Made by a program: the position numbers. Of a stretch of 23,278 nucleotides of DNA, positions 12,001 through 15,000 are shown one piece after another. The first letter of the stretch is position 1; each line of letters starts with the position of its first letter. Source of the stretch: a virus (taxonomy: Duplodnaviria; Heunggongvirae; Uroviricota; Caudoviricetes); the IMG/VR virus record IMGVR_UViG_2547132127_000004; one strand, 5' to 3'.

Positions 12001-15000
12001 CGTGCAGGGGCATCGCAAGATGCGCCGGGTTCTATGTTGACCGGTTACGCCAACCCTGTACGTCTCACCACCTCTGTGATTGGCGTCCCATGTGGTGAGT
12101 TCTTTGAATTCAACATAGGGGCTGTCACCATGACTACTCTCCCAACCCTCTCTCAACCTGAAATTGCCATCGTTGATGGTTAGGCTGTTACTTCATCCCT
12201 GGCTGTTGCCAACTTCTTCTCTAAACGTCATGACGATGTTCTGAAAAAGATCCGCATTTTGGATTGTTCTCCAGAGTTTTGTGCCCGCAATTTTGCGGAG
12301 ACATCAATTTTGGTACGCCAGCCCAACGGCGGTACTCGCAAACTTCCCTGCTACCAAATTACCCGCGACGGCTTCGCCTTCCTTGCTATGGGCTTCACTG
12401 GTAAACGTGCCGCCCGGTTCAAAGAGGCATACATCAATGCCTTTAACCAGATGGAGAGGAGCTTATCAGGAGCTGGTGCGGCTGACATGTCATCTGTCGC
12501 ACAAAACGCCAGAGGCGTATACCTGCATTTGCGTGAAATCCATCAAATCTGGACAAGCCAGCTTTACCCAATGCTTAAGGCCGTTGAATCTCCGCTGGCT
12601 GGCAAACTGTACGACCGTGTAGGTGATGCTGTTTTTGGTGCTGCACTTGTTGATTCCAGGCTGAATGGTTCTGACAAGGAGGTGCGCCCATGATCCGCCA
12701 CATCGTTAATTTCCTGTATCACCGATACAACCATTGCCCCCGTGTGGGGCAGTGGTTCACCACCAGCAACGGCTACGTTCTGCGGGTTTGCCTGGTCAGT
12801 ACCGAAAGCCAGAAGGTTGTCTGCCAGGTTCAGGGACGTACTCATACCCTGAGTTATCCGCTGGTGGCGTTTCAGCCCGGAAAAATGTTTAAACGCCTGG
12901 AAGGTGGCTATGCGTCCGTCTGATCTTCTGCTCGATTTTGGACATCCGGTTGCTTATTACCCTGGGCTCGTTAAATACATGGGAAGTCCGCACGCTGTTA
13001 TTTTCTTTGGTCAGATTTTTTACTGGCAGGATAAAGCACATGCAGCGGAAGGCGTACATAAAACGCGTGAAGAGATACAACACGAAACCGGACTTACATT
13101 TGAACAACAGGCTGTAGCGCGTAAGCATCTTGTGTCCAGAGGCATTTTGGTTGAAACCAACAAGCGTCTTGAGCACAAAATGTTCTACCGTATAGATTGT
13201 GAGCGCCTTAATGAAATTATCAATGAAAACAATCAGTTTTCCCGAAATGGGGAAACCCGTTTTCGGGAAACTGTAAAACCCAATTTCGCGGAGGAGGGAA
13301 AGCCTTCACCGCGGACACGGGAAACCCCTCGCTGCGGAGAAGGGAAAACCAATTTCGATCTTACAGAGAATACAACAGAGATTACTTCAGAGAATACTAC
13401 AGAGAGTAAAAACACTATTGGCGCATCCGCTGACGCGTCTGCACCAGCGCGTTCTTCCCGACAGGAATATTCACCGGAATTTGAACAGGCCTGGCAGGAA
13501 TATCCAAAACGTGCTGGTGGTAACTCAAAATCCGCAGCCTTCAAAGCCTGGAAAGCCCGGCTCAGGGAGGGAATAAAACCTGAAGCCATGCTTGATGGCG
13601 TGAAACGCTATGCTGCCTGGGTACGTGCCACAGGAAATACCGGCACACAGTTCGTGAAGCAGGCTGCGACGTTCTTTGGACCCGATCGTCACTTTGAAGA
13701 CTTCTGGCAACAGCCAGCCGCTCCCGGAGGTGGGCGACAGCGACAGGTCGATGTCCTGGCTGGCCTGGGAGCCATGTCTGACAAATTCGGTAAATCCAGT
13801 GACAAACTGACATTCTGAGGTGACAGCGATGATGACGTTTAACCTGCGTGAACAACAAAAAAGACTACAGGCGCGAATGGATGAGTTACGGGCAGAGATT
13901 GCATTTGCTCAGAAGGGCGAAAAGCCATGGCCTTATCGTTCCTGCCTGATGCGTGAAGGTCGCGGATATTGCGAAAAACATGGCGAATATCACACGCATA
14001 TACTGGTGTGGAGCGATCGTAATGGCGAGGACAGAGAAGAAATTTCATGCTGCCCTGACTGCTTAATCGCTGAGGCCAACGATTTGACCATGGAGCTGTC
14101 GTCCATCAAGGCGGAAGAGCTGACTGATAACGCCGGAATTGCCCTGCGTTTTCGGGACTGCGAGTTTGATAATTATCTGGAGGTTAATCCTGGCGCAGCC
14201 AGAAATCTTGCGGCCTGTCGCCGCTATGCGGAGAACTGGCCAGATATGCTGGAGAACGGTACCAGTCTTGTTATGACCGGCAGTTGTGGTACCGGAAAAA
14301 ATCATCTGGCTGTGGCTATGGCAAAACACATCATCCGTAACTATCTGGCCAGTGTGGAGATCACCGACGTGATGCGCCTTACCCGTGCTGTGAAAAATTG
14401 CTGGCGGAATGACAGCGAAAAAACAGCGGATGAAGTTATTGAGCGTTATGCGTCAATGGATTTGCTGATCATCGACGAAGTTGGCGTTCAGTTTGGCAGC
14501 GCGGCTGAAATGGCTATTTTGCAGGAAATTATCAACGCCAGGTACGAAAGTATCTTGCCCACCATTCTGATCAGTAACCTCTCACCGGAAGAGTTGTGGG
14601 CGTTCATCAGTCCCCGAATTGCCGACAGGATCACAGACGGGGGACGCAACTGGTTGTCGTTTAACTGGCCCAGTTACCGTTCTCGTATCAGAGGTGTGGC
14701 TGCATGACAACTCCAGTATGGCGTAACGATGACCTTGAAGGCGCTGTCATCGGCGCGTTCTTTCTGCGCGGAGCAGATCCTGAAGTGATGGATATTCTGG
14801 CCACACTGCCAGCGGACGTTTTTTCTGTACGAGCGCATCAGGATATCTATACAGGCATCTGCAGACAGGCCCGTGTTTCAGGAGTGATTGACCCCGTGCT
14901 GTTGTGTAATGAGATGCCGGAACTTGCCCCGGTGATTACTGATACCGGGCGTAAAACCTGGGTGAAGTCTTCACTGGAGCACTATGTTGCAGCGTTGCGG

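Follow-up and report, generated by a model that had tools for sequence, protein, structure and literature searches.

Two repeat classes inside a phage initiator gene

We analyzed a 23,278-nucleotide stretch of Caudoviricetes DNA (IMG/VR record IMGVR_UViG_2547132127_000004; "the window" below means this whole stretch) that carries a prophage replication module, in which the genes for an initiator, a DnaC-like helicase loader, and a DnaB-like replicative helicase follow one another with overlapping or abutting stops and starts (Table 1). Within the initiator gene, whose open reading frame (ORF) extends on the + strand from 12904 or 12910 to 13818, lies a segment built of two classes of direct repeats, a series of 23-bp-spaced units and a tandem array of 12-mers, which probably forms the origin of replication of the module. 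The initiator has a match to PHROG 270 (7e-65; "replication initiation protein") and none to any Pfam or NCBIfam model, even at E ≤ 10 with its domains searched separately; RefSeq names for it are "DNA-binding protein," "hypothetical protein," and "LvrA C-terminal domain-related protein." An AlphaFold2 model built on 26 homologues predicts an N-terminal winged-helix domain (N-domain; helix, strand, helix, helix, strand, strand), a disordered linker, and a helical C-terminal domain (C-domain), and every repeat of the segment falls within the predicted linker. The loader, for which NCBIfam DnaC models score below cutoff, is the presumed partner of the C-domain.

The pattern GGGAAANCC occurs seven times in the window, compared with 0.78 expected, and four of these copies (at 13250, 13296, 13319, and 13342) lie within 100 bp. 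A degenerate unit, GTAAAACCC, at 13273 fills the series, giving five units with an exact spacing of 23 bp between 13250 and 13357. The same period is reported by Tandem Repeats Finder, and self-identity over 13237–13361 is 0.60 at lag 23, a value reached by none of 5,000 shuffles, and 0.56 at lag 46. The 16-bp unit has the consensus GGGAAAnCCnnTTTCG, in which a partial GAAA...TTTC dyad can be read. An imperfect palindrome, which overlaps the first unit and supplies one more GGGAAAC half-site (at 13265), marks the left edge of the candidate origin; its counterparts, TTCCCGAA/TTCGGGRA pairs, are present in homologues from Burkholderia, Pasteurella, Acinetobacter, and Klebsiella. As a single strand, the part with the 23-bp-spaced units can form hairpins. 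Because 23 is not divisible by 3, the reading frame shifts from unit to unit (2, 1, 3, 2, and 1, three frames in all), and the encoded peptides are unrelated (GETRFR, VKPNFA, EGKPSP, RETPRC, and GKTNFD), which identifies the units as repeats of DNA and not of peptide.

The second class consists of four tandem 12-mers with the consensus (T/A)ACAGAGAWTAC, followed by an A-rich tail. The string CAGAGANTA occurs four times, compared with 0.4 expected, and all four copies are in tandem at a 12-bp period between 13364 and 13408. With a weight matrix derived from 401 homologous units, the four 12-mers score 16.5–21.3 bits, and the runner-up site in the 23 kb scores 9.2 bits. The GC content of the array is 0.30–0.35, compared with 0.49 for the gene, and no 56-bp duplex of 12000–16100 is less stable than the array, which falls within the top 0.13% of the window in this respect. 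Single-stranded, it has almost no structure; it consists of 64% purines, and the peptide that it encodes (TENTTEITSENTTES) is of low complexity. Across the array, 66 bp are 100% identical to inducible Stx phages. No DnaA boxes (TTATNCACA, at most one mismatch) are present in 11188–14388, and the whole window has 9 compared with 18 expected; promoter and terminator signals around the candidate origin do not exceed chance, the promoter-like scan covering 12100–14000.

A preliminary description of this DNA had placed GGGAAA-type repeats, followed by four tandem 12-mers, in the linker-coding part of the initiator gene. Both classes are there in excess of chance, inside the ORF and within predicted disordered residues 107–184, and the location it gave (13245–13410) stands, with the limits now at about 13238 and about 13419. 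The separate AT-rich region that it suggested looking for 3' of the repeats is absent: the DNA beyond the array is 70% GC, and the array is itself the A+T-rich trough.

Table 1. Positions of the repeat segment, the replication module, and neighboring features in the window (pLDDT, predicted local distance difference test)
Feature	Position	Strand	Basis or remark
Initiator gene, 302 amino acids	12910–13818	+	ORF list; start from homologues and the LC567818.1 annotation
Predicted winged-helix N-domain	residues ~15–106 (to nt 13227)	+	AlphaFold2
Predicted disordered linker	residues 107–184 (nt 13228–13461)	+	AlphaFold2, pLDDT about 30
Predicted helical C-domain	residues 185–269 (nt 13462–13716)	+	AlphaFold2, confident, pLDDT about 90
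Imperfect palindrome, TTTCCCGAAA (13238–13247) / TTTCGGGAAA (13261–13270)	13238–13270	.	15-nt arms, 87% complementary
Candidate iteron 1, GGGAAACCCGTTTTCG	13250–13265	+	Pattern count, 23-bp series
Candidate iteron 2, GTAAAACCCAATTTCG, degenerate core	13273–13288	+	Repeat search, 23-bp series
Candidate iteron 3, GGGAAAGCCTTCACCG	13296–13311	+	Pattern count, Tandem Repeats Finder, 23-bp series
Candidate iteron 4, GGGAAACCCCTCGCTG	13319–13334	+	Pattern count, Tandem Repeats Finder, 23-bp series
Candidate iteron 5, GGGAAAACCAATTTCG	13342–13357	+	Pattern count, Tandem Repeats Finder; 4 nt before first 12-mer
GATC (Dam) site	13357–13360		Within TTCGATCYTACAGAG
Four tandem 12-mers, TACAGAGAATAC, AACAGAGATTAC, TTCAGAGAATAC, TACAGAGAGTAA	13362–13409	+	Tandem Repeats Finder, period 12
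12-mer array with A-rich tail AAACACTATT	13362–13419	+	
GC-rich palindrome GCTGACGCGTCTGC	13429–13442		About 10–20 bp right of array
DnaC-like helicase loader gene	13820–14707	+	Pfam IstB_IS21 and Bac_DnaA; PHROG 50, 6e-90
DnaB-like replicative helicase gene	14704–16095	+	Pfam DnaB_C 3e-72 and DnaB N-domain
att core, P' arm, int	4803–5829		98.5% identical to lambda 27726–28752
IS3-family element	about 5828–7095		Cuts integrase gene at about 5829
968-amino-acid ORF	7303–10209	+	Toprim_2 primase-like, Hint/LAGLIDADG (intein), RecA/DnaB-like AAA_25
NinB	10559–10969		3' of 968-amino-acid ORF
Gp49/HigB-like toxin	11184–11492	-	PF05973
HTH_3 antitoxin	11482–11850	-	
Rha-like ORF	12259–12693	+	TTG start; Pfam Phage_pRha from profile position 32 only
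Second IS copy	about 20114–21381		99.8% identical to first
Partial inverted IS copy	about 22881–23066		

Small features adjoin the repeats. The GATC site falls exactly between the last 23-bp-spaced unit and the first 12-mer and is kept in nearly all Enterobacterales copies (at the same position in loci L007, L010–L013, L015, L016, and L109–L132), and Pasteurellaceae mostly have TTCGTTAAT there; the site may be linked to methylation or SeqA control. To the right of the array, the GC-rich palindrome is part of the C-domain module, phiP27 included, and in several copies, from Pasteurellaceae and others, the array is directly followed by CCCC(T)TA-CCCC...GGGG motifs. Loci with the palindrome or such motifs in this place are L008, L018, L028, L035, L036, and L132, and in L035 the CCCCCCTTA unit is expanded. 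In lambda, a 28-bp palindrome lies to the right of the AT-rich tract. In two IMG/VR copies (L102 and L103), a 1-base deletion in the T-run that corresponds to 13237–13240 of the window shifts the initiator out of frame, reflecting either a pseudogene or a homopolymer sequencing error.

Conservation, selection, and exchange of the segment

A tblastn search and two scans of sequence collections with the N-domain yielded 129 loci, from hosts that include Yersinia, Serratia, Proteus, Klebsiella, Burkholderia, Paraburkholderia, Caballeronia, Pasteurellaceae, Snodgrassella, Vitreoscilla, and Acinetobacter. A tandem array with the AGAWTAC core lies 3' of the N-domain part in 75 of 77 distinct loci, and the other two end earlier. 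In the 117 nt 5' of the array, self-similarity peaks at a lag of 23 bp for 57 of 65 distinct loci and again for 69 of the 83 distinct loci of the IMG/VR set; in controls for this test, 9–17% of segments fall at 22–24 bp (17% for the 65-locus set). The sequence of the 23-bp-spaced units follows the lineage of the N-domain, with the phase retained: units are of the GGGAAAnCC type in the window, Klebsiella, Serratia, and Yersinia, GCGCAAAGCGCA in the Proteus group, AAAGTGACATTCG in Pasteurellaceae, and CGACGAAAACGCATTTCG in Acinetobacter, with a CGRAA...ATTTCG skeleton common to all. The 12-mer is nearly constant.

Among 29 distinct E. coli-type copies, none of the 30 GGGAAA-core positions varies, compared with 13 of the 96 remaining positions of 13236–13361; among the sites that vary are the "n" of GGGAAAnCC, in two units, and a number of positions in the spacers between units. 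Third codon positions account for 3 of the 17 variable sites in 13236–13410 but for 9 of 14 in the N-domain part, so that constraint on the linker does not follow codons. In 15 distinct loci (from Pasteurellaceae, Snodgrassella, Vitreoscilla, Suttonella, and one Acinetobacter), the array is built of 13–14-bp units, for example ACACTAGATTACA, whose conserved core is read in frames 2, 0, and 1, and the resulting peptide is NTLDYNTRLHT, compared with TENTTEITTE from 12-bp arrays. Codon choice was counted in 165 distinct genes, each with at least three in-phase 12-mers. Glutamate codons in the arrays are GAG 474 times and GAA never, compared with 1388:2296 in the rest of those genes, p-values for this bias overstating independence, since the genes are related; in genes with less than 42% GC the ratios are 66:0 in arrays and 242:514 elsewhere. 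The bias is not circular, because the detection pattern allowed GAA. Threonine codons in arrays are ACA or ACT in 875 of 889 cases and are evenly spread elsewhere. Frame-rotating variants, fixed glutamate codons, and linkage to the N-domain (see below) show, by sequence comparison, that the array is selected as DNA. The preliminary description had proposed selection at the DNA level, and the conservation of the repeats as DNA in homologous initiator genes agrees with it, as do the three frames of the 23-bp series, the rotating 13-bp variants, and the fixed synonymous positions.

The layout is common to initiator genes of Enterobacterales, Pasteurellaceae, Burkholderiaceae, Acinetobacter, Firmicutes, and a cyanophage. 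The exact two-unit 12-mer pattern is found in at least 120 IMG/VR contigs; among the matches listed, nearly all lie on the coding strand of ORFs of 250–370 amino acids, whose N-domains form ~10 subfamilies with a common Q[LI]xYW motif and iteron-like repeats of their own, and whose C-domains form nine clusters. By blastn, the array lies in sequence annotated as a replication initiator in Acinetobacter, Klebsiella, Vibrio, Erwinia, Pseudomonas, Bacillus, Staphylococcus, and Lactobacillus phages and in a Synechococcus phage; in the four sequences read in detail (PM1, IME1348_01, BtCS33, and Ssp-JY37), repeats are followed by (A/T)TTACAGAGATTACTACAGAG.... A synthetic array of perfect 12-mers, used as a blastn query, gave no matches, presumably through low-complexity masking. 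Gram-positive phages (Bacillus, Staphylococcus, and Listeria) share the same N-domain superfamily together with the 12-mer array, and mEp460-type N-domains of E. coli and S. aureus phages share about 50% identity. A search with the window-type N-domain retrieved 3,691 clusters (50% identity) with a cutoff of E ≤ 1e-3 and 965 with one of E ≤ 1e-10. Of the 150 top representatives, 135 are full-length proteins, 85 of which fit the strict array-peptide pattern, and most of the 25 read from the remainder have evident variants of it. A query of the N-domain plus the candidate origin is complete in 101 of 5,426 complete E. coli genomes, and 1,416 complete E. coli genomes give short partial matches of 95–99% identity, which presumably stem from the 12-mer array in initiators of other types.

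Megablast comparisons place exchange between initiator genes at the array. Stx1a-, Stx2a-, and Stx2d-converting phages carry the whole initiator gene (96%), phiP27 and PhiR49_2 match only from ~13414 on, that is, over the C-terminal half just 3' of the array, and mEp460, HannyBb, and PhiR42_1 match only over the ~40 bp of the 12-mers, inside otherwise unlike initiator genes. In mEp460 and HannyBb, a different N-domain and five other repeats (of the CATCGGGTCAAAATG type) precede an identical GATCTTACAGAGAATACAACAGAGATTACTACAGAGAATAAAA; the link between the N-domain of the window and the mEp460-type N-domain is only suggestive (E 0.028). The phiP27 initiator has an HTH_36-type N-domain, repeats of its own, no 12-mer array, and a window-type C-domain, and its repeat region is presumably its origin, with a different downstream element; the region (L001, 2310–2510) has TCAGAATCTGA-type units and then two copies of AAACATGATCCGCAAG. 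In the set of homologues retrieved with the whole protein, 59 of the 60 that have a YW-type N-domain contain the array peptide by a strict pattern (the remaining one has the variant PEITPEITTES), and none of the 47 HTH_36-type initiators that share the window C-domain contains it. Natural chimeras (P0047, P0040/P0041, and locus L092) are joined exactly at the array and combine either another N-domain with a window-type C-domain or a window-type N-domain with a mEp460-type C-domain. One N-domain type pairs with at least four C-domain families. Near-identical E. coli copies also differ in array copy number, from three (L092) to five (L058 and L078).

A candidate origin and competing explanations

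The segment parallels the lambda origin, as the preliminary description had noted, and the parallel extends to position, spacing, the adjoining low-stability tract, and module exchange. Both lie in the linker-coding middle of an initiator gene, between an N-domain and a C-domain that, here putatively, bind DNA and recruit the helicase, respectively. Partial-dyad units stand about two helical turns apart, at 20, 24, and 23 bp among the four iterons annotated in the middle of lambda gene O and at 23 bp throughout here; directly 3' of them comes a tract that is rich in A+T and has purines on its top strand, and modules are exchanged at the linker. Lambda O binds its iterons, and the minimal unit competent for unwinding consists of two iterons along with the AT-rich tract (PMC7466680). 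In contrast to lambda, the partners here are DnaC-like and DnaB-like proteins instead of lambda P, the C-domain is also unlike that of lambda, and the tract is a sequence-conserved tandem 12-mer. Judging from inspection of the translated sequences, the initiators of mEp460 and BtCS33 have a lambda-type C-domain. We considered whether the lambda AT-rich tract might be an eroded 12-mer array, since ACACTATTACA, AGATTAT, and CAGAGAAT look similar by eye, and rejected this: the weight matrix gives at best 2.4 bits, compared with a mean maximum of 4.1 bits for shuffled sequence.

Among other phages, SPP1 (oriL in gene 38) and lactococcal phages have their origin inside the gene for the replisome organizer, and there the low-complexity peptide mirrors the DNA repeats. 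The family TIGR01714 is, we presume, described in the same terms, as having a low-complexity peptide that reflects DNA direct repeats; the array-bearing proteins tested match none of the curated N-domain models of the NCBIfam library, which should include TIGR01714.

We consider it probable that 13238–13419 is the cis-acting origin of the prophage replication module, with the 23-bp-spaced units as iterons and the 12-mers as an unwinding and helicase-loading element. What the analysis shows is the anatomy of the segment, its conservation as DNA, and the low duplex stability of the array; by analogy to known origins we infer binding, strain, melting, helicase loading, and origin activity. The origin would be encoded in the codons of the initiator's own disordered linker. 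Dimers of the winged-helix N-domain would bind the five 16-bp units and build a wrapped nucleoprotein complex like the lambda O-some; strain from this complex would melt the adjoining 12-mer array, the weakest duplex of the module, and the C-domain would recruit the phage loader and helicase onto the melted array. With melting and loading placed at the array, the 12-mers would be an unwinding and loading element and not specificity iterons. Of the preliminary description's view of all the repeats as iterons, the part concerning the 23-bp units is retained, and the 12-mers are distinguished from them, behaving as an element of their own that extends across the family and is most likely the unwinding region. 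The origin would be lambda-like in its working, and what is new is the family-wide layout of a 23-bp phase and a conserved 12-mer, of which the phylum-spanning 12-mer is the unexpected part. We found no prior description of the 12-mer array in the literature searched, which lacks most subscription journals, and its strings turned up only in unrelated primer lists.

Several points count against this interpretation. Melting alone leaves the strict conservation of the 12-mer unexplained, and another reader may be involved. The N-domain is modeled with only moderate confidence (pLDDT about 70), no relative of solved structure was found by sequence, and Foldseek returns only generic winged-helix matches (E ≥ 0.01), including plasmid RepA N-domains (4pt7 and 5kbj), with a complex of centromere-binding AspA with DNA among the weak ones. 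Homology of the N-domain to lambda O was rejected (hhalign probability 0.3%), and PF04492 (Phage_rep_O) and TIGR01610 do not match even at E ≤ 10, lambda O itself scoring 7e-37 and 5e-39 in the same runs; of the "O-like" initiator of the preliminary description, the architecture stands and detectable homology does not. The conservation counts lack phylogenetic independence, and the literature searched contains no binding, melting, or replication experiments on the module. No cI or cro genes were found beside the module, and a second replication gene appears to be present. The prophage is also defective, its integrase being interrupted by an insertion sequence (IS) element, so the origin may be silent here; its sequence is intact in comparison with inducible Stx phages.

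The array can be compared with the tandem 13-mers of E. coli oriC, RK2 oriV, and F ori2, in which A+T-rich 12–13-mers likewise flank the initiator sites; its own sequence is under selection. TrfA and RepE are specific for one melted strand of the 13-mers that make up their unwinding elements, and both the number and the exact sequence of 13-mers are important in RK2 and F, changes to a single 13-mer abolishing RK2 replication (PMC4980987). The element here differs in its sequence, in being kept in frame within a coding region, and in the absence of DnaA boxes. The strict conservation of the 12-mer and its linkage to the N-domain superfamily, with no such link to the C-domain or helicase partner, suggest that it is also read specifically; a conserved part of the initiator may read the 12-mers, possibly as single strands, and the universally conserved YW motif (Tyr38 and Trp39) is a candidate for the reader. 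In a stronger form, the array would be a specific recognition element, read, perhaps as single-stranded DNA, by a conserved surface of the winged-helix initiator superfamily (which has a Q-x-x-Y-W motif and is without a Pfam or NCBIfam model), and would make up, with the 23-bp phase, a portable origin layout. We put this forward tentatively, judging it rather more apt to fail than to hold. The array would then be the phage counterpart of the oriC 13-mers, the DnaA-trio, and the unwinding 13-mers of RK2; the layout would be common to phages of Proteobacteria, Firmicutes, Cyanobacteria, and probably others, and phage origins could be predicted from sequence alone.

The same conservation, stricter than melting requires, and the same linkage to the N-domain superfamily would also be expected if the 12-mers were double-stranded sites for a second binding mode of the initiator, or for a conserved host factor, and hence a second iteron class within the origin. 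The period of 12 bp is about half of 23, and the array begins in register, 4–5 nt past the last iteron. We nevertheless think this unlikely: the iterons covary with the N-domain lineage and the 12-mer does not, so a single recognition surface is not expected to read both; moreover, the array is the minimum of duplex stability, no DnaA boxes lie nearby, and no host factor of such specificity, common to Proteobacteria, Firmicutes, and Cyanobacteria, is known to us. That the repeats are instead operator-like sites regulating the replication genes, or a partition or packaging site, and no origin at all, is improbable. Phased winged-helix sites do occur in operators and centromere-like sites, the AspA–DNA complex is among the weak fold matches, and proteins of the lambda O type bound within their own gene could hinder transcription. 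These sites, however, lie in the initiator gene of a replication module, resemble known origins in combining iterons with a low-stability tandem array, are accompanied by no promoter-like signal above chance in 12100–14000, and are retained wherever the N-domain occurs, regardless of the neighboring genes.

The breakpoints at the array in phiP27, mEp460, L092, P0047, and P0040, the pairing of one N-domain type with at least four C-domain families (nine C-domain clusters in all), and the polymorphic copy number fit a homology patch, or "linker," for recombination between modules. Such a patch with no role in initiation would be most surprising, as it leaves unexplained the fixed distance from the last iteron, the low duplex stability, the 13-bp variants that keep the core and change the frame, and conservation across hosts that cannot exchange phages directly. 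We give about as little credence, or slightly less, to selection of the array as mRNA, for example as a binding site or as a tract that pauses translation between domains. The array is invariably found on the coding strand, with a single orientation, its synonymous positions are fixed, and the tract is unstructured and purine rich; but no known RNA motif fits (no Rfam search was made), the register with the DNA iterons and the stability minimum point to DNA, and the 13-bp variants shift the frame, so a codon-based pausing signal is not conserved. Least credible of all, and contradicted by the results on reading frames and codons, is a flexible peptide linker with no DNA function. The region does encode a predicted disordered linker with a low-complexity peptide, yet the 23-bp units run through three frames, 13-bp arrays rotate theirs, GAA is missing from the arrays, and substitutions in the linker are not concentrated at third positions.

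The Eru7 module and its prophage

By its sequence, the module is of the Eru7 type of Stx-phage replication units, the classification into Eru types resting on which genes neighbor cI (Fagerlund et al. 2022, PMC8951638). The initiator gene and its repeats are 95–96% identical to the Eru7 unit LC567818.1 over 12678–13736 (95.4% over 91% of the gene, with 96.4% over the full gene in related Stx phages), and the DnaC-like and DnaB-like genes are about 82% identical. Neither cI/cro nor stx was found in the window, and the similarity of the Rha-like gene present there is only about 70%. According to the 2022 survey, Eru7 is the most widespread Stx-phage replication type in Europe, and nothing is known of the replication of Eru phages (PMC8951638). 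The papers that define the Eru types do not mention an origin or iterons, and we found no description of an origin for Eru phages or for this initiator family in the literature searched. A candidate, testable origin is now available for the Eru7 module; after induction, phage replication drives toxin gene dosage. The 23-bp phase with the 12-mer array is a simple signature for locating the origin in thousands of initiator genes that domain libraries leave unnamed, and the linker offers a natural experiment, in which synonymous recoding can part the coding role of its DNA from the cis-acting one.

Homology to lambda begins within the att core, indicating an attL-type prophage junction, beside ETF and MFS-transporter genes, and continues through the P' arm into int. 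An IS3-family element cuts the integrase gene, and a further copy and a partial inverted copy lie toward the other end of the window. The 968-amino-acid ORF looks, from its domains, like an intein-bearing primase-helicase, which would be a second replication gene of the prophage, and is followed by NinB. Small ORFs just 5' of the initiator gene in several phages show no demonstrable homology (14–29% identity). The toxin/antitoxin pair lies directly upstream of the Rha-like gene, where Eru7 Stx phages have other genes. The Rha-like ORF is probably truncated or disrupted, with a TTG start, a Phage_pRha match that sets in only at profile position 32, and an upstream part that is only about 70% similar to the Eru7 gene.

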